From Candidatus Sericytochromatia bacterium (GTDB lineage Bacteria; Cyanobacteriota; Sericytochromatia; S15B-MN24; UBA4093), in the NCBI GenBank assembly GCA_036676985.1, contig JAKFBU010000053.1, positions 1-59,706 on the forward strand: 59,706 bases of DNA. The letters are read 5' to 3'. A program made the position numbers and the translations under genes. This document shows positions 22,292 through 40,840 of the stretch, in pieces. The number at the start of each line of letters is the position of its first letter. Position 1 is the stretch's first letter. The notes below the pieces were generated by a model. The model was not told where the DNA came from. It made no database searches and was given only the letters and a program-made list of their open reading frames with translations.

Positions 22292-22438
22292 GGGGCCTCC
22301 CGGCAAGCAGGGCTAAGGCCTACATACCCCGCGGGGGCTCCCATTCCTCTGCTTGACAGCCAGGGGGCGATTGCCTAGGGTAGAAGCGGCTCTTGGCGCG
22401 GCGTCGCGCCCGAAGGGCGTGAGGGGAGGTCGTTTCTC

Positions 22439-23236
22439 GTGCGCGTGTTGCTCATGATGCTGCTGTTCTGGGCCGTCGCCCTGCCGGCCCATGCCCTGCA
22501 GGACCTCCATGGCCGGCCGGTGAAGCCCGGCGCCTACCGGCGCATCGTCTCGCTCGCCCCGTCCAACACGGAGCTCGTGTACGCCATCGGCTGGGGCGAT
22601 CGCCTCATCGGGGTGACGGACATGTGCGACTTCCCGCCCGAGGCCCGGAAGAAGCCGCGCGTGGGCGGCGCCGAGAACCTCAGCGTGGAGCAAGTCCTCT
22701 CGCTCAAGCCGGACCTCGTCCTCGCCATTCCGTCCAAGGCTCCGGCCCTGCGCCAGCTCGCGCGCATGCTCAAGGCCCCGGTCGTGGTCCTCGAGAGCGA
22801 CACGCTGGAGTCGGTGGCCGCCAATGCCGAGGCGCTGGGCGGGGTCATCGGACCCGAGGGCAAGGCCTTCGCGGCGCGCTACCGCAAAGAGCTGGGGCGC
22901 ATCAAGCCGGCGGGCCACCATCCGAGCGTCTTCTACCTGGTCTGGGATCGGCCGCTCATGAGCGCCGGGCCGGGGACCTTCCTGGACGACCTGATCCGGC
23001 GCGCCGGGGGCCGCAACATCGCCACCGAAGCCGGCTATCGCCCCTTCTCGGAAGAGCGGCTGATCGCAGGCGCTCCGCAGGTGGTGCTGTATCCCACCAA
23101 CTTGAAGGCGGCCGCCGGGCGTCTCAAGGAGCGCTTGCCGGGGGCACGCTTCGTCGCGCTGCCGGCGGATGAGGTCTCTCGACCGGGGCCCCGGGTGTTC
23201 AAGGCCATCCAGCAAGCTGCCCGGTCTTTCGAGTGA
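22439..23236 (+). CDS. BtuF-like cobalamin/Fe-siderophore ABC substrate-binding protein
   Basis: Signal peptide; RIVSLAPSNTE, GVTDMCDFP, EQVLSLKPDLV, TFLDDLIRRAGGRN, SRPGPR. Confidence 0.88.
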   Translation: MRVLLMMLLFWAVALPAHALQDLHGRPVKPGAYRRIVSLAPSNTELVYAIGWGDRLIGVTDMCDFPPEARKKPRVGGAENLSVEQVLSLKPDLVLAIPSKAPALRQLARMLKAPVVVLESDTLESVAANAEALGGVIGPEGKAFAARYRKELGRIKPAGHHPSVFYLVWDRPLMSAGPGTFLDDLIRRAGGRNIATEAGYRPFSEERLIAGAPQVVLYPTNLKAAAGRLKERLPGARFVALPADEVSRPGPRVFKAIQQAARSFE

Positions 23237-23292
23237 GAAAAGTGCGCCGAGCCGGGCGAATCCTTCACTTAAATATGTTACACTAACGCCCT

Positions 23293-23682
23293 ATGAAGCC
23301 GCTTAAGATACTTGTTGTCGAAGACGAACCCACCAATGCCGAGATTCTGAGCATCCTCTTGACCCGAGAAGGTCATCAGGTCGTGACCGCTTCCGACGGT
23401 CCGTCGGGCGTCAAGGCGGCGCTGGCCGAGCGGCCGGACCTGGTCTTCATGGACGTCCTGATGCCGGGCGAGTTCGACGGGCTCGAGGCGACGCGGCGGC
23501 TCAAGTCCGACCCGACCTTCCATGGCATCATCATCTGCCAGTCCGCGCGCGCGAGCGGCGCCGACCAGCAGGAGGGGCTCGGGTCCGGAGCCGACGGCTA
23601 CCTGACCAAGCCCTTCAAGCGCCAGGACGTGCTCGCCGTCATCGACCAGTTCGCGGACAAGCTGGCCGCCGCCAAGGGCTAG
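23293..23682 (+). CDS. Single-domain response regulator (CheY/DivK-like receiver)
   Basis: ILVVEDE, PDLVFMDVLMP, DGLEATRRLK, GADGYLTKPF. Confidence 0.93.
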   Translation: MKPLKILVVEDEPTNAEILSILLTREGHQVVTASDGPSGVKAALAERPDLVFMDVLMPGEFDGLEATRRLKSDPTFHGIIICQSARASGADQQEGLGSGADGYLTKPFKRQDVLAVIDQFADKLAAAKG

Positions 23683-24024: not shown

Positions 24025-24822
24025 CTAGATCGAGAGGTCACGCCGGCGGAACGTGACGGCGGCGCCCACCAGGCAGACGAGGATGAGGCCGCCCAGGACC
24101 GCCAGGTCCCGCGGCTCGATGCCGGCCCCGTTCAGGATCGCCTTGGGATCGTAGTAGTCGAAGAGCGACAGCCAGCGATAGGGCTTGAGCGGGCTCCAGA
24201 GCTCGGCCGCGTAGTTCCACAGGAAGGTCACCAAGAGGACGGCGGTCCCGACGAGGGTCGTCGGACCCTTTTCCGTAAAGACCGTCGAGCACCAGAGCGT
24301 GAGCGTCCCGAAGGTCCCGTAGAGTAGGAAGGTCATCAGGGCCGCCTGCAGGTAGACGCCGGGGCCCGCATGGGCGATGCCGAAGGCGGTCGAGGCCGCC
24401 CACACACCACCGACGAAGACCAGCGCGAGGATGGCGCTCCCCAGCAGCACGACGAAGGCCTTCGCCGCCAGGAACGGCACGCGGCCGATCGGGTAGCTGA
24501 GCATCCAGCCGAGGGTGCCCCGCTCGACTTCCCCGGCGATCGCCTGCGCCCCCCGGGCGAGGGGCCATGCGGAGAAGAGCGCCAGGAGGACCGGGTGCGT
24601 GTAGGCGATGGTGATGAAGCCCTCCAGCGTGTTCATGCCCATGCGGGTCTGCACGAGCGGCTTGAGGAAGCTCGGCACCACTTTCAGCATGTCCTCGAAG
24701 GAGTCCTTCATGGACGGATACATGGCCGTCATCAGGAAGGCGAAGGCGAGCACGCCGATCGACAGCGTGATCAGGAAGCGCAGTGAGACGCGCAGCTCTT
24801 GGCGCAGGACGTTCAGGTTCAT
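24025..24822 (-). CDS. ABC-2 type exporter permease
   Basis: IAGEVERGTLGWMLSYPIGR..AK, SLFDYY, FRRRDL; six TM segments. Confidence 0.88.
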   Translation of the reverse strand: MNLNVLRQELRVSLRFLITLSIGVLAFAFLMTAMYPSMKDSFEDMLKVVPSFLKPLVQTRMGMNTLEGFITIAYTHPVLLALFSAWPLARGAQAIAGEVERGTLGWMLSYPIGRVPFLAAKAFVVLLGSAILALVFVGGVWAASTAFGIAHAGPGVYLQAALMTFLLYGTFGTLTLWCSTVFTEKGPTTLVGTAVLLVTFLWNYAAELWSPLKPYRWLSLFDYYDPKAILNGAGIEPRDLAVLGGLILVCLVGAAVTFRRRDLSI

Positions 24823-25709
24823 GGCTGCTGGGGCTCGTAGTAGCTGAGGAAGATCTCCTCCAGGCGCGCCGGCTCGAGCGTGAAGTCGGCCAGAGGGACC
24901 TCCGCGAGGGAGGACAACAGGGCCCGGGCGGAGCCCGCGTAGGTGAAGCTCGCCTGGAGCCCCTGCTGGGAGCGCAAGGTCGCTTGGGGGATCCGCAGGG
25001 TCGCCGCGTCGAGGGCATGATCGAGCGTCAGGTTGAGGATGCGGACCTTCCGGGCTTGCAGGTCCTCGATGCGCTCGACCGCGAGCAGCTTGCCCTGGCG
25101 GATGATGGCCACGCGATCGCAGATCTGCTCCACCTCGGAGAGGATGTGCGAGGACAGGAAGATCGTCTTGCCGCGCCCCCTGGCCTCGAGCAGGATCTGG
25201 TGGAACTCCTGCTGGATGAGGGGGTCGAAGCCGTCCGAGGGCTCGTCGAGGATCATGAGGTCCGGGTCGTGCATGAGCGCCTGGATGAGCGCGACCTTCT
25301 GCTTCATGCCCTTGGAATACTGCCGGATCTTGCCCTTGAGCTTGATGTTGAGCCGCTCGGCGAGCTCATGGGCGCGCTTCAGGCTGCCTTCGGGACGGTA
25401 GCCCGCGAGGTACTTGAGCAGGTCTTCGCCCGTCATCTCCTCGTAGAGGTTGAACTCGGCGGGCAGGTACCCGAGGCGGTGCCTTAGCTCACGGGCCTGT
25501 CGGCGGCAGTCCATGCCGAAGATGAGGGCCTCGCCGTGGTCCGGTCGCAGGTAGTCCAGGAGCATGCGGATGGTCGTGGTCTTGCCGGCGCCGTTCGGCC
25601 CCAAAAAGCCGAAGATGAGCCCCGCCTCCACCTGGAGGGTCGCGTCGAAGACCCCGGTCGTCTCGGTGAAGCGCTTGGTGAGGCCGCGCGTCTCGATGGC
25701 GAGCGTCAT
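24819..25709 (-). CDS. ABC transporter ATP-binding protein
   Basis: Walker A GPNGAGKTT, signature YSKGMKQ, Walker B ILDEP, SSH. Confidence 0.95.
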   Translation of the reverse strand: MTLAIETRGLTKRFTETTGVFDATLQVEAGLIFGFLGPNGAGKTTTIRMLLDYLRPDHGEALIFGMDCRRQARELRHRLGYLPAEFNLYEEMTGEDLLKYLAGYRPEGSLKRAHELAERLNIKLKGKIRQYSKGMKQKVALIQALMHDPDLMILDEPSDGFDPLIQQEFHQILLEARGRGKTIFLSSHILSEVEQICDRVAIIRQGKLLAVERIEDLQARKVRILNLTLDHALDAATLRIPQATLRSQQGLQASFTYAGSARALLSSLAEVPLADFTLEPARLEEIFLSYYEPQQP

Positions 25710-28128: not shown

Positions 28129-28467
28129 CTACTCCTTAAGCTCCAGGCGATCGCCCTCTTTGAGGCCGTGCCTCGCAATCGTCCCGGCGGGCAGCTCCAG
28201 CGTTTGATATGCCCCGAACACAACGGGCGAAACCCTCCAGGGCTGGAGGTCGGGCAGGAGCCGCTCCACGACGAGATCCTTGGTCAAGAATACCACGTCG
28301 ATGGGATAGCGCATGAAGAACATGTGGACGGAGTTGCAGGGCTTGATCAGCAGGCCCTGACCCTCGGGAAGAGAGCGCGTGAACTGGAGTCCGGCGAACC
28401 GGGTCCAGAAGTTGTCCGCCACCCGCAGGTCGCGCACCAGGTCGGCGTCGTTCCGGACGATTCGCAT
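28129..28467 (-). CDS. DUF192 family protein
   Basis: VADNFWTRFAGL, SVHMFFMRYPIDVVFL, LELPAG..GLKEGD. Confidence 0.9.
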   Translation of the reverse strand: MRIVRNDADLVRDLRVADNFWTRFAGLQFTRSLPEGQGLLIKPCNSVHMFFMRYPIDVVFLTKDLVVERLLPDLQPWRVSPVVFGAYQTLELPAGTIARHGLKEGDRLELKE

Positions 28468-28671
28468 TTCGGTTCCCGAGCCCTTTCCATGCCGCTTTGA
28501 GGTCATCGACAAGTCCTTAATGCCCACCAATCGCTAGTCTAGCACGTACGCCCCATGCCGTGTCGACGATCGATCGGATGGACGCCCGGCTGTCGGACTG
28601 ATATGCTGTTTTAGCATTCACTAATGAAATTTAGTCAGTCCCAACCGTCCGCTCGACCAGGAGAACGTGCC

Positions 28672-29808
28672 GTGGAAATGACCTCGACCATCGCCCCGTC
28701 TTACTCCGCCACCCTCGACGCCCTGATCCGGGACGTCGTCGCGCCGCATGCGGTGCATGTCGACGAGGCGGGGGCGTTTCCCAAGGAGGGCATCGAGGCC
28801 CTGAAGCGCTCGGGGCTCTTGGGCCTCATCAGCGCCAAGGAGGTCGGCGGTTTGGGCGAAGGCCATCGTGCCGCGGCCCACGTGGTCGAGCAGCTGGCGC
28901 AGGTGTGCCCGTCCACGGCCATGGTCACGTGCATGCACTACTGCGCGGCGGCCGTGATCGAGGCCTTCGGGCCCATGGAGCTGCGGCAGGCGATCGCCCG
29001 TGGCGAGCACGTCTCGACCCTGGCCTTCTCCGAGGCCGGCTCGCGCAGCCACTTCTGGGCTCCGGTCAGCACGGCCGTGGTCTCGGGTGACCAGGTGGTG
29101 CTGGAGGCCAAGAAGAGCTGGGTGACGTCGGCGGGGCATGCCGACTCCTACGTCTGGTCGAGCCAGGCGGCCTCGGGCGAGGGCAACAGCATCTGGTTGG
29201 TGCCCTCGAACGCGCCGGGCGTGACGGTCGCGGCTCCCTTCAACGGCCTGGGCCTCCGCGGCAACGCGTCGTCGCCCGTCACGGGCGAGGCGGTCAAGCT
29301 TCCCCTGAGCCATCGCCTCGGTACTGACGGCCAGGGCTTCGAGATCATGATGCAGGTGGTGCTTCCCTACTTCAGCCTGATGAACGCGGCGGTGAGCGTG
29401 GGCATCAGCGAGGCGGCCACCAAGCGCGCGGCGGCTCACTGCGCGGGCACGTCCTTCCAGCACCTCTCGAGCGCCCTGAGCGACCTGCCCACCATCCGCG
29501 CCTACCTCGCCCGCATGCGGGTCAAGACGGACGCGGCCCGGGCGCTCCTGGACGACGCCCTGACGGCCCTGGAGTCGGGCAAGCCCGAGACCATGCTGCG
29601 GGTGCTCGAGGTCAAGGCGCTGGGCGCCGAGACCTCGACGGAGGTCACGGAGCTCGCCATGCGGGTCTGCGGTGGCGCGGCCTACCGCAAGGAGGTCGGT
29701 GTCGAGCGCTGCTTCCGCGACGCGCGGGCCGCGACGGTCATGGCTCCCACCACCGACGTCCTCTACGACTTCATCGGCAAGCTGGAGTGCGGCCTGCCCC
29801 TCTTCTAA
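28672..29808 (+). CDS. Acyl-CoA dehydrogenase-fold flavoprotein lacking the canonical catalytic Glu
   Basis: AFSEAGSRSH, KKSWVTSAG, GLGLRGNAS, ERCFRDARAATVMAPT; GTG start 8 nt after AGGAG (ATG 28678 is an alternative). Confidence 0.88.
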   Translation: MEMTSTIAPSYSATLDALIRDVVAPHAVHVDEAGAFPKEGIEALKRSGLLGLISAKEVGGLGEGHRAAAHVVEQLAQVCPSTAMVTCMHYCAAAVIEAFGPMELRQAIARGEHVSTLAFSEAGSRSHFWAPVSTAVVSGDQVVLEAKKSWVTSAGHADSYVWSSQAASGEGNSIWLVPSNAPGVTVAAPFNGLGLRGNASSPVTGEAVKLPLSHRLGTDGQGFEIMMQVVLPYFSLMNAAVSVGISEAATKRAAAHCAGTSFQHLSSALSDLPTIRAYLARMRVKTDAARALLDDALTALESGKPETMLRVLEVKALGAETSTEVTELAMRVCGGAAYRKEVGVERCFRDARAATVMAPTTDVLYDFIGKLECGLPLF

Positions 29809-29899
29809 TCAGAGGAAACGCCTCCCCACCTAACGCCCCCCTAGCAGGGGGGATGGGGGGGTAGACGAGTAGCCGCTTGAGTAGTTGAAAGGAACCCCC

Positions 29900-30766
29900 A
29901 TGCCCACCGCTTCCCTGAACACCACCCTTCCCGAAATCCCCTGGGCCGGCAGGGACGTCATCCGTCTCGGCTGCGTCGCCTACGACCCCAAGGCCGTCAC
30001 CATCTGGGAGGTCATCAAGGAGTACTTCCTGAACAAGGGCGTCCCCATGGACTTCGTCCTCTTCTCCAACTACGAGTCCCAGCTCGAGGCCCTCCTCGAG
30101 GGCGTCGTCGACATCGCCTGGAACACCCCCCTGGCGCACGTCAAGGCCCAGCTGCGCACGGGCGACACCTGCCTGGAGCTTGCCATGCGCGACGTGGACG
30201 CCACCTTCGCCTCCAAGCTCATCGTCCGCACGGACGCGGGCATCGAGTCGCTGCATGACCTGCACGGCAAGACCCTCGCGCTCGGCAGCGCCGACAGCCC
30301 CCAGGCGGCCATCCTGCCCGTCCACTTCCTCGCCAAGCAGGGCGTGGACCTGAGCCAGGTCGAGCTCTTGCGCTTCAACACCGACGTGGGCAAGCACGGT
30401 GACACCGGCACCAGCGAGCTCGACGTCCTCAAGGCGCTCGCCGACGGCAAGGCGCACGCGGGGACCGTGGGCGACGCCACCTGGATCAAGATGGTCGAGG
30501 CGGGCCAGGTGAACACCAAGCAGCTCAAGGCCATCTGGACCTCGCCCACCTTCTCGCACTGCTGCTTCACCGCGCTCGGCACCATCGACCCGGGCATGGC
30601 CAAGGCCTTCACCGAGACCTTGCTCAAGATGGACTACAACAACCCGCAGCACCGCCATGCCATGGATCTCGAGGGCTGCAAGGCCTGGTTGCCCGGCCGC
30701 AAGGAGGGCTACGAGTGCACCTACGAGGCCATCCGCGAGCAGAACATCCCGCTCGGGAGGGCCTAG
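29900..30766 (+). CDS. PhnD/SsuA-like (PBP2-fold) substrate-binding protein without signal peptide
   Basis: NYESQLEALLEGVVDIAW, SKLIVRTDAGIESLHDLHGKTLALGSADS; no hydrophobic N-terminus; RBS GAAAGGA. Confidence 0.82.
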   Translation: MPTASLNTTLPEIPWAGRDVIRLGCVAYDPKAVTIWEVIKEYFLNKGVPMDFVLFSNYESQLEALLEGVVDIAWNTPLAHVKAQLRTGDTCLELAMRDVDATFASKLIVRTDAGIESLHDLHGKTLALGSADSPQAAILPVHFLAKQGVDLSQVELLRFNTDVGKHGDTGTSELDVLKALADGKAHAGTVGDATWIKMVEAGQVNTKQLKAIWTSPTFSHCCFTALGTIDPGMAKAFTETLLKMDYNNPQHRHAMDLEGCKAWLPGRKEGYECTYEAIREQNIPLGRA

Positions 30767-30768
30767 GC

Positions 30769-32031
30769 ATGGAGACGGATCGGTTCACGGCGGGCGCCAC
30801 CACCTTCGGCGGGGATCTGGACTGCGGCAGCGGCCTCCTCATGCTCATCCGGGCCGGGCTGGATCGGCTTGAGCCCGGGCAGGTGCTGGAGGTCGTGAGC
30901 ACCGAGCCGTCCGTCTGGCATGACCTGCCGGCATGGTGCCGGGTGAACGCGCATCCTCTGGTGGGGGCCGTGCCCGACGGCGATCGGACCCGGTACTACG
31001 TCCAGAAAGGGACGGTCTCGCGGGGCGAGGCACGCCCCGACTGGGGCGTGCAGGTGCCTTTGCGGAACGGCAAGGAGCTCGACACGGCGGACTGGTTTGT
31101 GGGCAGGGTCGGCGACGTCCCTGACCATGCCGCGACCACCGACGGCTTCGCGCCGCGCGGCTCGGTCCTGGAGCCCGGGGCGCCGGACTACGACTTCTTC
31201 ATCAACGACAAGGACGAGGTCTGGGCCGACAACATCGCCGAGCTCTACGAGCAGGCGACGGCCGGTCAGTGGGACGCCTCGCGGGACATCCCCTGGAGTC
31301 ACCTCAAGCCTCTGCCCGAGCCCATGGAGCGGGCGGTCTGCCAGATCATGACCTTCCTGGCGGAGAACGAGTTCTCGGCGCTGTACGTGCCGGGGAAGTT
31401 CATCAGCCGCATCAACCCGCGCTACCAGGAAGTCGTCATGTTCCTGACCACGCACATGATGGACGAGGCGCGGCACATCGAGGTCTTCACCAAGCGGGCG
31501 ATGGCCAACGGTGGGGGGCTCCAGTACTCGGCGGCCTCGAGCCAGCTCTCGCTCAAGACCCTGTTCGACCAGACGGACTTCTCGAGTGCGAGCTTCCTGT
31601 TGAGCGTGCTCGGCGAGGGGACGTTCGTGGACCTCTTGCGGTTCATCCAGGACCACGCGCCGGAGGCCGTCACGGCGGAGATCGTCCGGCGGGCGCGGAT
31701 CGACGAGACCCGGCATGTGCACTTCGGCGTGGCGCACGTGCGCCACTACCTGAAGGCCGATCCGGCGAATGCCCGGAAGCTGATCGAGGCCTCTCACGCC
31801 CGGGCGGCGGTCATGGAGTCGGTGGCGGGGATCAACCCGATGGTGCAGGAGGCGCTGGCCATCCTCGCGGGCGGGGGGATCGAGCCCGATCAGGTCCAGG
31901 TGGGCCTGGCGCGGGTGCGGCTGTTGATGAAGACCATGCACGAGAACCGGATCAAGCGCCTGGTGACGGCGGGCTTCACGCCCGAGCAGGCGCAGGAGCT
32001 CTCGGAGCTGCACACTCCGAACTTCATGTAG
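30769..32031 (+). CDS. TusA/SirA-like domain fused to a ferritin-like diiron-carboxylate domain
   Basis: GGDLDCGSGLL..LEPGQVLEVVSTEPSVWHDLPAWCR (TusA fold); ligand set ENE, DEARH, GEG, DETRH. Confidence 0.85.
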   Translation: METDRFTAGATTFGGDLDCGSGLLMLIRAGLDRLEPGQVLEVVSTEPSVWHDLPAWCRVNAHPLVGAVPDGDRTRYYVQKGTVSRGEARPDWGVQVPLRNGKELDTADWFVGRVGDVPDHAATTDGFAPRGSVLEPGAPDYDFFINDKDEVWADNIAELYEQATAGQWDASRDIPWSHLKPLPEPMERAVCQIMTFLAENEFSALYVPGKFISRINPRYQEVVMFLTTHMMDEARHIEVFTKRAMANGGGLQYSAASSQLSLKTLFDQTDFSSASFLLSVLGEGTFVDLLRFIQDHAPEAVTAEIVRRARIDETRHVHFGVAHVRHYLKADPANARKLIEASHARAAVMESVAGINPMVQEALAILAGGGIEPDQVQVGLARVRLLMKTMHENRIKRLVTAGFTPEQAQELSELHTPNFM

Positions 32032-32045
32032 GGCCTGTTTCTTAA

Positions 32046-32226
32046 AGGAACCGTTCGCACTTCAAGAGCCTCAGTGTGAACGGATTTTAGTTGGCCTCAA
32101 GGGGGGGCTGCTCAAGCCAAAAAGAGATACCGCTAAGGGGAGCCCGCTCAAGCCAAAAAGAGAAGCCGCTCGAGACATCCACGACCAACCGTTCACCCTG
32201 AGGCTCTCGAAGGGCGAACGGTTCCT
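32046..32226. repeat. REPIN/MITE-like element: 38-bp imperfect terminal inverted repeats around a 36-bp tandem duplication
   Basis: 32046-32083 versus the reverse complement of 32189-32226 (3 mismatches); duplicated unit at 32099-32134 and 32135-32170. Confidence 0.8.
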
Positions 32227-32261
32227 CCAGTGCATGATCCTCACTGGAGCAGGCCCTTGAC

Positions 32262-33356
32262 CTATTGCTCGTGCCGCGCCCCGATCCCCTGCCCGACCAT
32301 GTCCCGCCAGAAGGGCAAGGTCTCCGTCACCACCGGCACGGTCCCATCGCCCACCTGCACCTCCAGCCGGGTGCCGGGCTCCACGTAGGCCCCCTTCACG
32401 AACCCCAGCGCCACGCCTGCCGCCACGCTCGTCACGACGCCGACCTTCTGCCCGTCCGAGCGGATCTCGGCCCCCTCCTCGGGCGCCGGGCCCGAGTAGC
32501 GCAGGCCCGTCAGGTAGCGCTGGACCTTGTCGTAGTTCGCAAGCCGCGCAATCACTTCCTGCCCCAGGTAACAGCCCTTGCGCATGCTCACCGAGTCCGT
32601 GAGCCGGGCCTCCCACGGGTTCACGTCCGGCCCGATCTCGTGCCCGAAAGTCGGGATGCCCTGCTCCACCCGCAACTGCTCCCACGCGTCCTGACCGATG
32701 GGCAGGACGCCCTTGGCGTCCGCCTCCTTGGCCAGGGACTCGAACATGGCCTTCGCGTCGTCCTTCGTCACCAGGAAATGGAAGCCCTCACCGAAGGCGG
32801 GCCAGGTCCGGGTCACCGTGACCCCGACCCCGCCGACCTTCGCCTTGACCGGATCGTGCATGGCCCAGTCCGGCTGCAGCCCCGTCGCCTTGGCGACGAC
32901 CGCCCGCGCATACGGGCCGAACAGGTAGGCGAGCCCCAGCTCCTCGGTCTCGTCCGAGAACGCGACCTCCACGTTGAGGAGGTACTTCTTCAGGGCCGAG
33001 CGGATGGCCCCCACGCGCCCCGGGTGCGTGAACAGCAACAGCCCGTCCGCCTCGCGCTGCACGAAGACGTGGTCGATCATCGTGCCCTTCCACGTCGTGA
33101 CGGCCGCCTGCATCCCCTTGCCCGGTGCGAGCGTCTGCAAGTTCTGGGTCGTGTAGTTGTTGACGAACTCGATGGCGTCCTTGCCCGTGATGCGCAGCTT
33201 GCCCCAGTTCGAGCGATCGACGAGCCCGCCGATGGCGCGGCCGCGGCCGATCTCCTCGGGCACGGGCAGGTACAGCATGGGCAGCGTCCAGCCCTCGTAG
33301 TCGGCAAAGACGGCGCCCATGCGGGTTTCGGCGGCGAGGAAGGGCGTGGTGGGCAT
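32262..33356 (-). CDS. ygfZ: YgfZ / GcvT-family folate-binding Fe-S maturation protein
   Basis: Signature KGCYLGQEVIAR; GcvT-like N-terminus; last gene of the isc operon. Confidence 0.88.
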   Translation of the reverse strand: MPTTPFLAAETRMGAVFADYEGWTLPMLYLPVPEEIGRGRAIGGLVDRSNWGKLRITGKDAIEFVNNYTTQNLQTLAPGKGMQAAVTTWKGTMIDHVFVQREADGLLLFTHPGRVGAIRSALKKYLLNVEVAFSDETEELGLAYLFGPYARAVVAKATGLQPDWAMHDPVKAKVGGVGVTVTRTWPAFGEGFHFLVTKDDAKAMFESLAKEADAKGVLPIGQDAWEQLRVEQGIPTFGHEIGPDVNPWEARLTDSVSMRKGCYLGQEVIARLANYDKVQRYLTGLRYSGPAPEEGAEIRSDGQKVGVVTSVAAGVALGFVKGAYVEPGTRLEVQVGDGTVPVVTETLPFWRDMVGQGIGARHEQ

Positions 33357-33383
33357 TGGGAACTCCTTTTCAGGACAGCAGCG

Positions 33384-33686
33384 TTAACCGAGACCCTTTT
33401 GCGGGGGCATCCGCACGACGATGTCGCCGTAAACCTTGGTCTGGCAGGCGAGCCGGCTCTTGAGCGTGGGCGCCTCGGCGCAGTCCACCCGGTCGGCCTC
33501 GGCATCCTCCTGCTCGGAGGTATGCTCCATGCCCGCTTCCACGTAGATGTGGCACGTGGTGCATGCGCAGAACCCCCCGCAGGCATGGTCCAGCATGATG
33601 CCATGCTCCAGGGCCGCATGGAGTACGTCCTGACCGGCGGGTACGTCTATCGTCTTGTTGATCGGGAGATAAGTAATCTTTGGCAT
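33384..33686 (-). CDS. fdx: ISC-type [2Fe-2S] ferredoxin
   Basis: HACGGFCACTTCH..SRLACQ. Confidence 0.93.
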   Translation of the reverse strand: MPKITYLPINKTIDVPAGQDVLHAALEHGIMLDHACGGFCACTTCHIYVEAGMEHTSEQEDAEADRVDCAEAPTLKSRLACQTKVYGDIVVRMPPQKGLG

Positions 33687-33695
33687 CTTCGTGTC

Positions 33696-35531
33696 TTACG
33701 GCTTGAGAAACTTGTCGACCCGCGTGCCGGAAACGGCCCCCTCGAGCGCGAGCGTCATCACGAGTTCGGCCAGGTGGCGCGTGGTCCCTTCCAGGGAGTC
33801 CTTGGCCGCGCGGATGGCGTCCGGGCTGTCGCCCGCGAGGGTGCGCTGCATGTGGGCGATCGCGCTGTCCACCAGCTCCCGCTCCTCGGGGGCCAAGGCC
33901 TCGGCCGCCGGCGTCGCGAGCGCCTTCTCGGTCGCCTGCAACAGCGGCTCGGCCTCGGTCCGGGCCTCCAGGAGGGCGCGCGCATGGCGATCCTCGCTGG
34001 CATGCAACATGGAGTCCTGCAGCATCTGCTCGATCTCGGCCGCCTCGAGCCCGAAAGTCGGCTTGACCTCGACCTCCTGGACCGTGCCGGCGCGCAGGTC
34101 GCGGGCCGTCACGTGCAGCACGCCGCTCGCGTCCACGGCGAACTTCACGTCCACCCGGGGCCAGCCCGCCGGCGCCGGGTCGATCGTCACCTCGAAGCGC
34201 GCGAGGCTCCGGCAGTCCGCCACGAACTCGCGCTCGCCCTGCACCACGTGGATGACGACCGCCGTCTGGTTGTCCACGTAGGTGGTGTAGAGCTCGCTCG
34301 CGTAGGTGGGAACCTTTTCGTTGCGCGGGATGAGCTTGCTCACGGCCCCGCCGATGGTCTCGATGCCCAAGGAGAGCGGGACCACGTCCAAGAGGAGCAC
34401 GTCCGAGCGCTCGCCAGCGAGCACGTCCGCCTGCACGGCGGCCCCCAGGGCCACGACCTCGTCGGGGTTCAGGGAGTCGTTGGGCGTCCGCCCGAAGAGC
34501 TCGGAGACGAGCCGCTTGACCATGGGCACGCGGGTCGAGCCGCCCACGAGCACCACGTCCCGGATCCGGTCGGGGGTGACGCCCGCGTCCGCGAGCGCCT
34601 GCCGGCAGATGGCCACGGTCTGCGCGAGGATCGGAGCGGCCAGGCTCTCGAACTCCAGCCGGGTCACCGGGTGGCTCCAGGCTCCGCCGAGGGCCGGGTG
34701 ATCGACCAGGGCGACGGCCTCGGGCGCCTCGGACAGCGCCTGTTTGACGCCCTCGGCCGCGCGACGCAAGAGCTCGTGCGCGTCATCGATCCGCGCGGCG
34801 TCGAGCCCGCGCTCGGCCTGCAAGGCCTGCGCCAGGTGGGCCATGAGCGCGCGGTCCAGGTCGTCGCCGCCCAGCTCCGTGTCGCCCGCCGTCGCCAGGA
34901 CCTCGAAGACGCCGTCCTGCAGCTTCAGGATCGAGACGTCGAAGGTGCCGCCCCCGAGGTCGTACACGGCAACCAGGCCGTTCTCCTTGCGATCGAGGCC
35001 ATAGGCGAGGCAGGCGGCGGTGGGCTCGTTGACGAGCCTGAGCACCTCGAGGCCCGCGAGCTTGCCGGCGAGCAAGGTCGCCTGGCGCTGGGCATCGTTG
35101 AAGTAGGCGGGAACGGTGACGACTGCCTGCTTGACGCCCTGCACGAGGTTCAGCTCGGCGATCGCCCGCAGCTTCTTGAGGATGAGGCTCGACAGCTCGA
35201 CCGGCGTGAACCGGCGGCCGGCGAGCGTGAGGCGGATGGTCTCGGCGGTGCTGCCCGCGAGGTCGAACGGCAGCTTGTCCTGGAGGGGGCCGAGGTCCGC
35301 GAGCCCGCGCCCCATGAGGCGCTTGACCGAGTAGGCCATGCGGCGCGGGTCCGCGAGGCCCACGTCCTGGGCGGCGCGCCCGACCACCACGCGGTTGTCC
35401 GCGCCCATGGCCACCACCGAGGGCACCAGGCGGCTCATGTCCGCGTCGGGCAGCACCACCGGGTGCCCCTTCTCCACCACGGCCACCAGGCTGTTGGTCG
35501 TGCCGAGGTCGATGCCGACGATGCGTGCCAT
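33696..35531 (-). CDS. hscA: Fe-S chaperone HscA (Hsp70 family)
   Basis: True start [14 protein letters not shown]; [20 protein letters not shown]; isc operon context. Confidence 0.92.
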
Positions 35532-35574
35532 TCCCTTATGCTCCTCCCGGTCGCCCGACCGTGCAGTCCACCAT

Positions 35575-36132
35575 TCAGAACCCGGCCGCCATGAGCTGGG
35601 TGTCCAGGTCGCGCCGCATGGCGCGCAAGTAGCTGAGATCCCCCACCAGCCGGGCCAGCTGCTCCCGCAGGGGGCCGCGCTCGGTGGCCGCGAGGGCGTC
35701 GTGCTCGTGCGCGAGCTCGCCGAGCCGGCTTTCCCAGTCGGCGGCCAGTCCCTTGAGGTCCGTGCGCAGCTCCGTGAGCCGCACCAGCGCCGCGTCGCAA
35801 ACGCCGCCTTCGCGCAGCTCCTCGCGCGTCTCCTGGATCTCGAAGTACTCCTCGGCGAGCGCCACGGGCACCTGGGCCCGGGACAGGTCCGCGCCATGGG
35901 CGGCGAGCAGGTAGCGGGTCCGCTCCCAGGGATCCTTGAGGGTGCGGTAGGCGCGGTTGACGAGCTCCATGCGCTCGGCGGCCTCCGCCTGGGCCTCCGG
36001 CCCCTTGGTCGCGAAGCGGTCAGGGTGATGCGCCCGGGCGAGCGCATGGTAGCGCGCGTCGAGGTCCTGGCGATCGAGCTCGAGCCGTTCGGGCAGGTCG
36101 AAGAGGTCGAAGAAGCTCGGCTCGCCCGGCAT
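35575..36132 (-). CDS. hscB: Co-chaperone HscB
   Basis: J-domain [20 protein letters not shown]. Confidence 0.92.
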
Positions 36133-36133
36133 C

Positions 36134-36529
36134 TTAGGCCTCCTGGCCGGTGGCCTTGCGCTGGTAGTCGCCGATGGCCTTGCGGATGGCGTCCTCGGCG
36201 AGCACCGAGCAGTGGATCTTGACGGGCGGCAGCGCCAGCTCGCGCACGATGTCCGTGTTCTTGATGGCGAGGGCCTCGTCCAGGGTCTTGCCCTTGAGCC
36301 ACTCGGTGGCGAGGCTGGAGCTTGCGATCGCGCTGCCGCAGCCGAAGGTCTTGAACTTGGCGTCCGAGATGACGCCCGTCTCGTCGTCGACCTTGATCTG
36401 GAGCTTCATGACGTCGCCGCACTCGGGCGCGCCGGAGATGCCCGTGCCCACGCCGGGCTCGTCCTTGGCAAAGGAGCCGACGTTGCGCGGGGACTCGTAG
36501 TGGTTGATGACCTGATCGCTGTAGGACAC
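36134..36529 (-). CDS. iscU: Fe-S scaffold IscU
   Basis: [35 protein letters not shown]. Confidence 0.96.
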
Positions 36530-36538
36530 GGTGCGCTC

Positions 36539-37765
36539 CTAGTGCGCCTGCCACTTGATGGTGGACAGGTCGTAGCCTTCCTTGTGCATCTCGTAGAGGG
36601 GGGACATGTCGCGCAGGCGGCGGACCTGCTCGATGACCACCCGGGCGGTCTCGTCGATCTCCGCCTCGGTGTTGAAGCGGCCGATCCCGAAGCGCAGCGA
36701 GGTGTGCGCCAGGTCGTCGCCGACGCCGAGGGCCCGGAGCACGTAGCTCGGCTCCAAGGAGGCCGAGGTGCAGGCCGAGCCCGAGGAGACGGCGATGCCC
36801 TTCATGCCCATCATGAGGCTCTCGCCCTCGACGAAGGCGAAGCTCATGTTCAGGTTGCCGGGCAGGCGGCGGGTCGGATGGCCGTTGAGGTAGACCTCGT
36901 CGAGGGCCTCGGTGATCGTCTGGTAGAGGCGATCGCGCAGGTCCGTGAGGCGCTTGATCTCGGCCGCGAGGTCCTGCTCGGCGACGGCACAGGCCGCGCC
37001 CAGCCCCACGATGCCCGGCACGTTGAGGGTGCCGCTGCGCATGCCGCGCTCGTGGCCGCCCCCGTGCATGAGGGGGGCGAGCCGCACGCGCGGGTTCTTG
37101 CGGCGCACGTAGAGGGCGCCCACGCCCTTGGGACCGTAGAGCTTGTGGGCCGAGATCGACAGGACGTCGATCTGCATGGCGTTCACGTCCACGGGCACCT
37201 TGCCGACGGTCTGGGCGGCGTCCACGTGGAAGAGCGTGCCGTTCTTCCGGCACAGGGCGCCGAGCGCCGCCACGTCCTGCAGCGTGCCGATCTCGTTGTT
37301 GCCGTGGATGACGCTCACGAGGATGGTGTCAGGCCGGAGCGCCGCCTCGAGGGCCGCCGGGTCCACCAGGCCGAAGCGGTCGACGGGCAGCACCGTCACC
37401 TCGAAGCCCTGGCGCTCCAGGTGGGCGCAGGTGTCGAGGGTGGCCTTGTGCTCGATGGCCGTCGTGATGAGGTGCTTGCCCTTCTCGTGGTAGAGCTCGG
37501 CCACGCCCTTGAGCGCCAGGTTGATGGACTCGGTGGCGCCCGACGTGAAGATGATCTCCTTGCCCGAAGGCTCGCCCCGCTCGTCCTTGGCCCCGATGAG
37601 GCGCGCGATCTGGACGCGGGCCTTCTCGACGGCCTCCTCGGCCGTCCAGCCGTAGGCGTGGTTGCGGCTCGCGGGGTTCCCGAAGCGCTCGGTGAAGTAG
37701 GGCAGCATGGCCTCGAGGACCCGCGGGTCCACGGGCGTGGTGGCATGGTTGTCGAGGTAGATCAT
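36539..37765 (-). CDS. iscS: Cysteine desulfurase IscS
   Basis: [38 protein letters not shown]; ATGA overlap with the iscR stop. Confidence 0.96.
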
Positions 37766-38208
37766 CCGGCACCTCCTGGGAGCTCGGCGAAGAGGGCGCG
37801 CGACCGGTCGTCGGCGGCGAGGCCGGCGAGCGTGTAGCCCGCGAGCACCTCCAAATAGCGGTTCTGGGCGACCTGCAGGGCCCCCTGGATGGCGCAGCCG
37901 CTGCGGAAGCAGGCGTAGGGCTCCTTGGCCGTGCAGTCGTTGACGGCGATCTCGCCCTCGATGGCCTCGACGATGGACCGCAGCGTGATGGCCTCGGCAG
38001 AGCGGGCAAGCTCGATGCCGCCCGAGCTGCCGCGCTGCGAGCGCACGAGGCCCGCGCGCACCAGCAACGGCACCAGCTTGCACAGAAAGGAGGCCGGAAT
38101 CCCCTCGCGCTCGGCGATGCCGGCGCTGTCCAAGAGCTGCCCTGCCGGCGCCTTGGCCAAGGAGAGCATGGTGAGGATTCCGTATTCGGTCGCTTTGGTG
38201 AGTTTCAT
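37762..38208 (-). CDS. iscR: Rrf2-family regulator, IscR-like
   Basis: [18 protein letters not shown], three C-terminal Cys (C-x7-C-x4-C); first gene of the isc operon. Confidence 0.85.
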
Positions 38209-38232
38209 GGCCTGGTCCCGGGCGGTCGGCGC

Positions 38233-38297
38233 CAAATCAGACAAAAATGGTCCGATTTGCCCAGTCCGACTGTACGCCATGCCTCCAGGCTTGTCAA
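38233..38297 (-). promoter_or_regulatory. isc promoter TTGACA-N17-TACAGT and downstream Rrf2/IscR-type operator
   Basis: -35 at 38292-38297, -10 at 38269-38274; palindrome CAAATCGGAC-N7-GTCTGATTTG at 38233-38259 with the GAC-N7-GTC core of IscR type 1 sites. Confidence 0.8.
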
Positions 38298-38416
38298 ACG
38301 GGGCAGGAAGGATGGCGCCTCGATCCCCGACGGAGCGATCGCTCAGGCCGCGTGACGGAGCGGCGGCCAAAAAAGTTTCGGGCTCCGAGCCGCGCCGCGC
38401 GGGCACTTGCAGAAAC

Positions 38417-38816: not shown

Positions 38817-38941
38817 CCCACGTCCCTCCCTGGCCCTCGATCCTAGGCCCGGTCGTCGCTTGGCGGAACGGCCGGATCGCCGAGATCCATGGGCCGCTTT
38901 GTGAAGCGGCGCGCGCCGTGTAACATGGAGGGCTGCGAGCG

Positions 38942-40840
38942 ATGGAAAGGGAGGCGGCATTGAGCGGGGATGCGAACTGGGACGTGATCGTCATCGGCGG
39001 CGGGCATGCGGGCTGCGAGGCCGCGCTCGCGGCCGCCCGGCTCGGCAGCCGGACCATGCTCGCCACGGGCTCGCGCGCGACCATCGCGACCATGCCCTGC
39101 AACCCCGCCATCGGGGGCCCCGCCAAGGGCAACCTGGTCCGCGAGATCGACGCGCTGGGCGGCGAGATGGCCCGGGTCACCGACCGCACGGCCATGCAGA
39201 TCAAGATCCTCAACCAGTCCAAGGGCCCGGCCGTCCAGGCCCTGCGCGCCCAGTCCGACAAGGCCCGCTACGCGGAGGCCATGCGCGCGGTGGTCGAGCA
39301 AACCGCCAACCTCACGGTGCAAGAGGTGCTGGTGGAGGCCCTCCGCGCCACCCCGGACGGCGGCATGGAGCTGGTGACCGACCGCGGCGAGGTCCTGCGC
39401 GCCCGGGCCGTGGTGCTCACGACGGGGACCTTCTTGCGCGGCAAGCTGTTCACGGGCCTCGAGTCGACGCCGGGCGGCCGCACCGGTGAGGCGCCCGCCA
39501 ACGCCCTCACCCGGAGCCTGCACGAGCTTGGCCTCAGGACCGGCCGCCTCAAGACGGGCACGCCACCCCGAGTGGACGGCCGGACGCTGCGCTTCGAGCG
39601 CATGGACCTGGCGCCGGGCGGCACGCCCGACCTCCACTTCTCCTTTCTGCCGCCCGACGCGCCCACCCCGCAGCACCCCTGCTACCTGACGCACACCACC
39701 CTCAGGACGCACGCCGTCATCACCGGCGCGCTCGATCGCTCGCCCATGTTCACGGGCCTGATCGAGGGCGTGGGCCCCCGCTACTGCCCGAGCATCGAGG
39801 ACAAGGTCGTGCGGTTCCCGGACAAGGACTCGCACCCGGTCTTTTTGGAGCCCGAAGGCGCCGACACCGTCCAGTGGTACGTGCAGGGCATGTCCACGAG
39901 CCTGCCCGCGGACGTGCAGCTCGCCATGCTCCACACCATGCCGGGCCTGGAGGAGGTCGTCATGCTCAAGCCCGGCTACGCCGTCGAGTACGACTACATC
40001 CCGGCCATCCAGCTGCATGCGACCCTGCAGTGCAAGCTAGCACCCGGCCTCTTCACGGCGGGCCAGATCAACGGCACCTCGGGCTACGAGGAGGCCGCCG
40101 CCCAGGGCCTGGTCGCGGGCATCAACGCGGCCCGCCACGCGCGCGGCCAGGAGGGCGTCGTCTTCCCGCGCTCGGAGTCCTACCTGGGCACGCTCGTCGA
40201 CGACCTCGTCACCAAGGAGATCAACGATCCCTACCGCATGCTGACGAGCCGCTCCGAGTACCGCCTCTACCTCCGGCACGACAACGCCGACGAGCGCCTC
40301 ACGCCCCTGGGGCGCGAGATCGGACTGGTCTGCGATCGCCGCTGGGAGCTCTTCACGACCAAGCAAGAGGCCATCAAGGCGGAGCGGGCCTGGCTCCAGG
40401 CGACCCGCCTGTTGCCCGACCCCGCGCTCAACGAGCGCCTGGAAGCCGCCTGCGGCGAGCGGGTCGAGCGGCCCGTGACCCTCGAGGAGCTGCTGCGGCG
40501 CCCGCCCGTGCCCGCTCCCTTGGTCTGGGAGCTCGCCGGGCGGCCAGGGGTCGACCCCGGGGTCATGGAGCAGCTGGGCATCCAGACCAAGTATGCGGGC
40601 TACATCGAGCGCCAGACCGCCCAGATCGCCAAGCTCAAGCGCCTGGAGGACAAGGCCATTCCCCAGGACCTGGATTACCACGCCGTCAAGGGGCTCGCCC
40701 GCGAGGCCCAGGACAAGCTCGCCCGCGTCCAGCCCCGGACGCTCGCCCAGGCCGCCCGGGTGGGCGGCGTGACGCCCGCGGACGTCAGCCTGCTCCTCGT
40801 TCACCTGGAGTCCCGGCAGCGATCGCTGCTCCCCGGTTAA
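38942..40840 (+). CDS. mnmG: tRNA uridine-5-carboxymethylaminomethyl(34) synthesis enzyme MnmG/GidA
   Basis: [54 protein letters not shown]. Confidence 0.97.

Follow-up and report, generated by a model that had tools for sequence, protein, structure and literature searches.

A conserved gene trio for a Glu-less acyl-CoA dehydrogenase-like flavoprotein, a leaderless PhnD-like protein and a TusA-like/diiron fusion protein in a Candidatus Sericytochromatia bacterium, and its relation to the Rv1679-Rv1681 type module

A stretch of 59,706 nt from Candidatus Sericytochromatia bacterium (contig JAKFBU010000053.1, assembly GCA_036676985.1; G+C content, approximately 68%), hereafter called the window, contains three co-oriented genes for a flavoprotein of the acyl-CoA dehydrogenase (ACAD) fold, a PhnD-like protein with the fold of periplasmic substrate-binding proteins (SBPs), and a protein in which a TusA-like domain is fused to a ferritin-like diiron-carboxylate domain (Table 1). 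The gaps between the genes are 91 bp and then 2 bp, and the ACAD-like gene starts at GTG 28672 or at ATG 28678, with GGAGAA at 28660-28665. The gene order, the gaps, the divergent gene on the 5' side, the repeat on the 3' side and the converging iron-sulfur cluster (ISC) operon were all as described in the original prediction, which was made from the sequence alone. The ACAD-like and PhnD-like proteins were found to be nearest to the NCBIfam families Rv1679 and Rv1680, a point absent from that prediction, and the trio is a diiron version of the Rv1679-Rv1681 type module.

Table 1. Coordinates of the trio, its domains and the surrounding features in the window
Feature	Position	Strand	Remarks
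Genes for a Peripla_BP_2 binding protein and a response regulator	22379-23682		5' of the ABC-2 pair
ABC-2 exporter gene pair	24025-25709	-	
DUF192 gene	28129-28530	-	Divergent; 5' boundary of the trio
AT-rich stretch with two short palindromes	28590-28640		Read in the sequence of the divergent intergenic region
ACAD-fold flavoprotein	28678-29808 (28672-29808 from GTG)	+	376 aa from ATG 28678; Pfam ACAD N/M/C
Leaderless PhnD/NMT1-like protein of the periplasmic-binding-protein fold	29900-30766	+	288 aa; Pfam Phosphonate-bd, NMT1
TusA-like/diiron fusion protein	30769-32031	+	
TusA-like domain (fusion residues 1-84)	30769-31020	+	Pfam TusA; Foldseek 3lvj_C
Conserved linker (fusion residues 85-149)	31021-31215	+	PDWG and GFAPRG..EPG.P motifs
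Ferritin-like diiron-carboxylate domain, putative (fusion residues 150-420)	31216-32031	+	Ligand conservation; Foldseek; PDB profile matches
Dispersed repeat, MITE-like (MITE: miniature inverted-repeat transposable element)	32040-32240		About 200 bp; 38-nt terminal inverted repeats, 92% complementary; 3' boundary of the trio
Complete ISC operon	32262-38406	-	Converges on the trio
MnmG/GidA gene	38924-40840		Beyond the ISC operon

The three proteins

All three Pfam ACAD domains (PF02771, N-terminal; PF02770, middle; PF00441, C-terminal) were found in the flavoprotein above their cut-offs, with E values from 1e-13 to 5e-22. The best NCBIfam family by far was Rv1679_FadE16 (NF049984; 436.7 bits, below the cut-off of 600), and other matches were to the 3-sulfinopropanoyl-CoA desulfinase (9.5e-33), SfnB (8.6e-29) and DszC (4.5e-16) models. 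These three are presumably enzymes of the same fold without the Glu base; however, the flavoprotein of the window is nearer by sequence to the true short-chain ACADs and Bcd (E 4e-38 among solved structures) than to them. With phmmer, the catalytic-Glu 'YEG' of Bcd (5ol2_C) and human SCAD (7y0a) was aligned to M355-A356-P357, where 'RDA.ITEIYEGT' of Bcd and SCAD stands against RDARAATVMAPT and the Glu position is occupied by Ala356. M-A-P is kept in 55 of the 56 flavoprotein relatives, and the C-terminal GLPLF is equally conserved. Residues 228-233 (V/L/P/W(Y)/F/x), the presumed counterpart of the helix G Glu of the IVD/LCAD type, include no acidic residue. The alignment at Ala356 bears out the absence of the catalytic Glu claimed in the original prediction, and we infer that the flavoprotein would be incapable of Glu-based alpha,beta-dehydrogenation.

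For the PhnD-like protein, a Pfam match to Phosphonate-bd (E 1.3e-36) was obtained, and the best NCBIfam family was SBP_like_Rv1680 (NF049985; 320.8 bits, below the cut-off of 400), with SsuA and putative selenate binder models also among its NCBIfam relatives. Its N-terminus, MPTASLNTTLPEIPWAGRDV, is not hydrophobic, and there is neither a signal peptide nor a lipobox. No hydrophobic 12-mer was found in any of 62 PhnD-like relatives, 55 of which have 13 or fewer residues ahead of the first strand; note that the start codons of the relatives were picked by us, with the ACAD stop codon usually only tens of bases 5' of the SBP alignment. No importer permease or ATPase gene lies beside the trio, and no transporter cluster is common to the 80 loci described below. 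These data agree with the earlier proposal that the protein is cytoplasmic and has no importer.

The invariant residues of the PhnD-like family are S56, Y58, W74, R97, D132, S133, K165-H166-G167-D168, H220-C221 and F223, and Q135 is nearly invariant. They also hold in an alignment that includes members from the radical S-adenosylmethionine (SAM)-type and MetE-type loci (see below). Among solved structures, the nearest by sequence are phosphonate and phosphite binders. The phosphonate-binding proteins of the PhnD/PtxB/HtxB group belong to the same fold family, and the S-N-Y, W and R-D motifs are common to the window's protein and to the phosphonate binders 7s6g and 5lq5. Unlike that group, it lacks both a leader and a transporter; the Ser-rich anion loop 'GSesStSG' of 7s6g is aligned to 'GsrDsaqa' (D132-S133-x-Q135), and K165-H166-G167-D168 and H220-C221, invariant in 62 of 62 relatives, have no counterpart in 7s6g and 5lq5. 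Such a remodelled pocket suggests a catalytic or metal site. Enzymes with a binding-protein fold are exemplified by MqnA, MqnD and THI5, and the last type is represented in the PhnD-like protein by a Pfam NMT1/THI5 match (E 8.3e-10).

In the fusion protein, the N-terminal domain was recognized by Pfam TusA (31.1 bits; cut-off, 28.6) and superposed by Foldseek on E. coli TusA (3lvj_C) with a template modelling (TM) score of 0.84 and a root-mean-square deviation of 1.8 over 75 columns. The Pfam match of the helical domain to AurF (PF11583; 20.7 bits) is below the gathering cut-off of 29.6, and a match to DUF455 is weak. The AlphaFold model of the whole protein has a mean predicted local distance difference test (pLDDT) value of 93 and a predicted TM score of 0.86; the linker (pLDDT, 88-96), with P129, G131 and E135 invariant, is placed confidently by the model alongside the helical domain. 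The candidate ligands E199/E201, E233-x-x-H236, E283 and E313-x-x-H316 are identical in 72 of 72 relatives, and the E, ExxH, E, ExxH set on the four-helix core of the model is a putative diiron site. The best Foldseek matches of the helical domain were R2lox, Chlamydia class Ic R2 and the azoxy synthase VlmB (TM score by target, 0.55-0.65), its structure-atlas neighbours are of the AurF type, and the PDB profile matches of the fusion protein were TusA (1e-6), R2lox (1.6e-5) and a VlmB homolog (8.2e-5), none of them close. The R2lox, class Ic ribonucleotide reductase R2 and AurF/VlmB oxidase proteins thus have the same four-helix ferritin-like core and ligand set; however, the identity is 14-20%, the window's protein adds the TusA-like domain, the linker and a nearly invariant C-terminal tail (HTPNFM), and fixed ACAD and SBP-like partners are not known for those enzymes.

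Conservation of the trio and exchange of its third gene

Of the 7999 candidates scored, 3349 are homologs of the fusion protein at E <= 0.001; their database names are 'TusA-related sulfurtransferase', 'ferritin-like domain-containing protein' or hypothetical protein. In a 50%-identity library, the fusion clusters amounted to 1341, 633 and 160 at E <= 1e-3, 1e-10 and 1e-30, respectively. One genome per species was scanned, which gave 573 confirmed stretches, and gene neighbourhoods were taken from the best 80 loci. These belong to more than 10 phyla (Armatimonadota, Planctomycetota, Chloroflexota, Actinomycetota, Bacillota, Acidobacteriota, Myxococcota, Bdellovibrionota, Gemmatimonadota, Latescibacterota and others), across which the identity of the module is 43-65%. 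The co-oriented order ACAD-SBP-fusion was found in 51 loci and the co-oriented order fusion-ACAD-SBP in nine, so that the full trio is present in 60 of 80; another seven have only the SBP-like gene with the fusion gene, which adjoin each other in 67 of 80. Neither partner was found in 13 loci, of which three end at a contig edge, one (L007) is preceded by just 863 bases, four (L003-L006) have other neighbours and five are relatives lacking the TusA-like domain. With the trio repeated in 60 of 80 loci, the arrangement is not due to chance, and the expectation of a unit conserved across phyla was confirmed. All-against-all clustering of every open reading frame (ORF) revealed no further gene family shared by more than 11 of the 80 loci.

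The NCBIfam relationship was followed with the Rv1680 model in one actinobacterial class, where 30 of 294 genomes gave a match at E <= 1e-40. The fusion gene lies beside the SBP-like gene in 24 of these (G186, G094 and G166 included), another third gene was found in two (G014 and G018), neither third gene lies within 1.5 kb in three (G208, G209 and G048), and the contig ends in one (G045). The other third gene encodes a radical SAM protein of 330 aa whose score passes the cut-off of the model NF049973 ('Rv1681 family radical SAM protein'). Matches above this cut-off were obtained in G014 and G018 of the 294 genomes and in G524 of a set of 401, with the ACAD-like and SBP-like genes directly upstream in three of three, and the order ACAD-SBP-Rv1681 was also found in the Chloroflexota genomes G786 and G804. 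Note that this type, represented in G014 by L090 and L119, stands on G018, G524, G786 and G804 without that genome. The 'MAP' and GLPLF motifs of the flavoprotein also occur in a radical SAM-type locus (L130). Only sub-threshold radical SAM matches, without partners, were obtained in G436 and G410. A radical SAM gene 4.4 kb downstream of the ACAD-SBP pair in G208/G216, among unrelated genes for TldD, an epimerase, DoxX and BacA, was not counted. By database names, the Rv1681 family is distributed in Mycobacterium, Rhodococcus, Nocardia, Prescottella and Arthrobacter; the window's own genome has no close Rv1681 homolog (best tblastn match, 61.6 bits).

The Rv1679 (FadE16)/Rv1680/Rv1681 (MoeX) system (NF049984/NF049985/NF049973) therefore shares with the trio its gene order and both core proteins, namely, an ACAD in which 'MAP' replaces 'YEG' and which ends in GLPLF, and an SBP that has no leader and carries K-H-G-D and H-C, although the window's proteins score below the curated cut-offs as given above. 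The third protein likewise seems to start with a TusA-like module, with marginal scores, and differs in its catalytic domain, which is radical SAM rather than diiron. Rv1681 proteins have about 65 residues ahead of the CX3CX2C motif. For residues 1-66 of the L130 protein the best Pfam match was TusA (E 0.0011; 19.2 bits, below the cut-off); residues 7-81 of Rv1681 were aligned in register with residues 33-110 of the fusion by hhalign (E 3.7e-4; probability, 36.5%); and the N-terminus of the Rv1681 model has the order helix-strand-helix-strand-strand, which is that of TusA minus its first strand. The Rv1681 N-terminal module is likely to be homologous to the TusA-like domain. The family alignment shows no invariant Cys in this module.

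A third kind of partner was found in Chloroflexota. Of 301 genomes, eight have the SBP-like gene, and the third gene is of the Rv1681 type in two, the fusion in three and a MetE-like gene (Pfam Meth_synt_2) in three. The fusion gene is absent from the whole assembly in two of the three MetE-type genomes and lies elsewhere in the other (G004). The scores of the SBP-like proteins to the Rv1680 model were 458-475 bits for the radical SAM type, 296 bits for the G849 fusion locus, 235-262 bits for the MetE type and 212-230 bits for two other fusion loci, with which the MetE-type scores overlap. The scores track the type of the third gene, and the core therefore co-varies with its partner. These neighbourhoods show that a fixed ACAD + SBP core takes interchangeable third subunits, that is, the diiron fusion, the radical SAM protein or the MetE-like protein.

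Interpretation and alternative explanations

On balance, we favour the view that the three genes specify one cytoplasmic enzyme module, a diiron version of the Rv1679/Rv1680/Rv1681 module. The PhnD-like subunit would hold a small substrate, or a metal, in its remodelled pocket (K-H-G-D, H-C and D-S-x-Q), and the TusA-like domain would dock the third subunit, or its catalytic domain, to the PhnD-like core. The diiron centre would activate O2 and abstract hydrogen from, or oxygenate, the bound substrate; the Rv1681 type would use a 5'-deoxyadenosyl radical for the same step. The FAD protein may carry out a hydride-type oxidation of an intermediate or shuttle electrons. A small polar metabolite, possibly an organosulfur compound, is the probable substrate, and our best guess for the reaction is an O2-dependent oxidative step on it. 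AcsF/BchE and HemF/HemN are precedents for such pairs of oxygen-dependent and radical SAM enzymes. At the gene level, a physical link between the PhnD-like and fusion proteins is indicated by the 2-bp gap and by a 705-aa in-frame SBP + TusA + diiron open frame in an actinobacterial metagenome-assembled genome (L021:7122-9239), which could be a natural fusion or the result of a lost stop codon. A complex of the two proteins was predicted with a score of 0.52 (runs: 0.00, 0.58 and 0.52; best of three controls, 0.00), which supports it weakly; agreement between the runs is at least 0% of contacts, with a partner pLDDT of at least 86. Of 80 solved complexes, 58 reach the mark for such scores, as do 2 of 110 mismatched pairs, and scores of 0.60 or less that pass the mark come from only seven of those 80 solved complexes and from both of the passing mismatches. 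The claim of the original prediction that the genes form an enzyme system rather than a transporter is upheld by the missing leader, the missing importer genes and the altered anion loop.

Several observations weigh against this view. In the complex prediction one run of three gave 0.00. The scores behind the resemblance of the Rv1681 N-terminus to TusA are marginal, and in a Foldseek search with the whole Rv1681 model the 50 matches listed were all radical SAM enzymes, with no TusA fold among them. A MetE-like third gene, which is non-redox, does not fit the idea of the same radical step carried out by other means. Three of the seven SBP + fusion-only loci end at a contig edge; however, the other four carry other genes at the ACAD position. 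The five relatives without the TusA-like domain stand alone, with neither an ACAD-like nor an SBP-like gene, and in L003-L006 the order is TusA, a DsrE-like gene and then a Cys-bearing fusion gene, again without the two partners (e.g., L004:6478-9218). Among the kin of the window, the fusion gene was found in only 2 of 40 genomes, both of the same taxonomic order but of another family, and in none of nine genomes of the same family; with this patchy distribution, the module is regarded as accessory.

A more specific proposal, which we put forward tentatively, is that the module represents a new class of three-component enzyme. The binding-protein-fold subunit with its His, Cys, Asp and Lys residues would be the catalytic or substrate-presenting heart, the base-less ACAD would be its fixed redox partner, and the TusA-like domain would be the dock for diiron/O2 or radical SAM chemistry; the enzyme would form or cleave a bond (perhaps C-S) of an undescribed metabolite or cofactor. 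The module is widespread and strongly conserved and has no assigned function, and the same applies to the Rv1679, Rv1680 and Rv1681 families, which are named after M. tuberculosis genes. No tested function was found for the three (moeX and fadE16 included) in the papers searched, which on these genes were proteomic, biomarker, expression or annotation work, and no characterised pathway that matches the gene combination was found in the literature outside subscription journals and supplements, as the original prediction had also supposed. The trio, apparently the oxygen-using counterpart of the mycobacterial trio, is a good place to look for new chemistry and possibly a new case of oxygen-dependent and oxygen-independent enzymes with the same job; a core with diiron, radical SAM or MetE-like partners also offers a handle for function discovery. 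The analysis also corrects the automatic names 'acyl-CoA dehydrogenase' and 'phosphonate ABC transporter substrate-binding protein', both of which mislead.

The main rival is a sulfur relay, in which Cys19 of the fusion would receive a persulfide from IscS or a DsrE-like protein, and the diiron centre, the flavoprotein and the binding protein would build or oxidise a C-S or S-S bond in an organosulfur product; we consider it unlikely, and it is kept because the MetE-like variant and the TusA, DsrE and OsmC neighbours point to thiol or organosulfur chemistry. Cys19 stands at the canonical TusA position (that of the persulfide Cys, Cys19, of E. coli TusA), Cys57 is near-invariant, and, as in the TusA/DsrE relay, the fold and the canonical Cys are present, with a sister clade (L003-L006) behind TusA and DsrE-like genes. 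All members of the window's clade (P0001-P0008; identity, 66-92%) keep the Cys, and the motif occurs in 32 of the 120 best homologs. Sulfur-type genes recur near the module: a row of TusA, DsrE-like, TusA-OsmC fusion and MetE-like genes lies 3.6 kb from the trio in L031 (L031:57-2273), and an OsmC-like gene precedes ACAD-SBP-MetE-like in G004. The desulfinase, SfnB and DszC relatives of the flavoprotein and the SsuA and selenate binder relatives of the PhnD-like protein lean the same way. However, Cys19 is followed by Gly where TusA has Pro, the domain is fused to a diiron domain, and the Cys was found at this position in only 5 of 72 fusion relatives (the window and L003-L006; Leu in 36) and lost in the other 67, and among the ACAD/SBP-linked loci of the 80 only the window has it. 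By these alignments, the canonical Cys is dispensable in most members, and the N-terminal module of Rv1681 has no invariant Cys either. The genome of the window has no homolog of the DsrE-like, short MetE-like or OsmC-TusA proteins at E <= 1e-6. An IscS-like gene is present in 1 of the 80 loci and IscU in none, and the suggestion that the converging iscS operon is the sulfur donor is thus not general. The 'GGDLDC' Cys proposed earlier as a sulfur carrier holds for the window's clade but not for the family, and of the earlier organosulfur pathway the recurring sulfur-type neighbours stand, while ISC adjacency and the Cys itself are not conserved. In a FastTree phylogeny, fusion-first trios fall in a clade with good support, at whose base the window and L003-L006 make up a grade; the sulfur relay is likely to be a lineage-specific addition in the window's clade.

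Less probable still is that the third subunit is a maturase which modifies a residue of the PhnD-like protein (e.g., His220-Cys221) or of the flavoprotein, the modified core being the real enzyme. Formylglycine-generating enzymes, which occur in oxygen-dependent and radical SAM forms, are an analogy, and the invariance of H220-C221 and K-H-G-D, specific to the family as compared with true binders, the interchangeable third gene and the presence of the peptide and protein maturases SkfB, SuiB and anSME among the radical SAM fold neighbours are in line with it. The tight 1:1 operon and one natural fusion better suit a stoichiometric subunit, as in the enzyme module favoured here, and the MetE-like replacement is hard to square with a maturase. 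Finally, that a phosphonate binder, an acyl-CoA dehydrogenase and an unrelated ferritin-like protein of ordinary transport and beta-oxidation stand together by accident, as the Pfam names alone would have it and as PMC8562490 might imply for Rv1680 by calling it, on structural likeness, a putative phosphonate transporter component, is very improbable in view of the leaderless family, the lack of importer genes, the altered anion loop, the absent Glu and the trio in 60 of 80 loci.

Surroundings of the trio and variants of the fusion protein

The two palindromes in the AT-rich stretch just 5' of the ACAD-like gene are ATGCT-N5-AGCAT and ACTAATG-AA-ATTTAGT, and they are a possible operator or promoter. 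As a regulon motif in the window's own genome, the latter gave just two other weak matches with up to three mismatches, and a scan around the trio for a consensus sigma-70 promoter and a terminator gave no match. Farther 5' of the DUF192 gene, the minus strand encodes an SLH-domain protein, an LmeA-like protein and then the ABC-2 exporter pair; these are the sole ABC genes nearby, about 3 kb away and on the strand opposite to the trio. The binding protein and response regulator genes beyond them look ordinary.

On the 3' side, the repeat contains an internal 36-nt tandem pair and gave 93 matches across the 4.68-Mb genome, and it is therefore classed as a dispersed MITE-like repeat. The ISC operon consists of genes for a YgfZ/GcvT-like protein, ferredoxin, HscA, HscB, IscU, IscS and an Rrf2 regulator. 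Because the frames of IscS (36539-38083) and Rrf2 (37762-38406) overlap, the true IscS start is probably later. The MnmG/GidA gene beyond the operon looks ordinary.

In the diiron relatives without the TusA-like domain (L044, L045, L053, L058 and L062; Gemmatimonadota and Latescibacterota), the match begins at residue 82-90 and the neighbouring genes are unrelated (cellulase, ABC permease, dehydrogenase and cupin). Three homologs with 31-33% identity (P0315, P0328 and P0360) carry different extensions, 120-150 residues long, at the N-terminus where this domain would be. The extra domains of these three and of P0272, P0324 and P0332 gave no match to the query proteins used, and a hunt for longer fused forms returned one protein, P0241 (834 aa), whose extra part matches none of the query proteins. 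The Rv1681, diiron fusion and ACAD families each have a conserved C-terminal tail (LFPCA, HTPNFM and GLPLF, respectively), which may serve for docking. A gene of the metallo-beta-lactamase fold lies downstream in L006. Two small ORFs (81 and 98 aa) lie between the SBP-like and fusion genes of a planctomycetal locus (L031:7419-7957), with a similar gap in L028 and L040, also of Planctomycetota; from their sequences, the two in L031 look like an inserted toxin-antitoxin pair.

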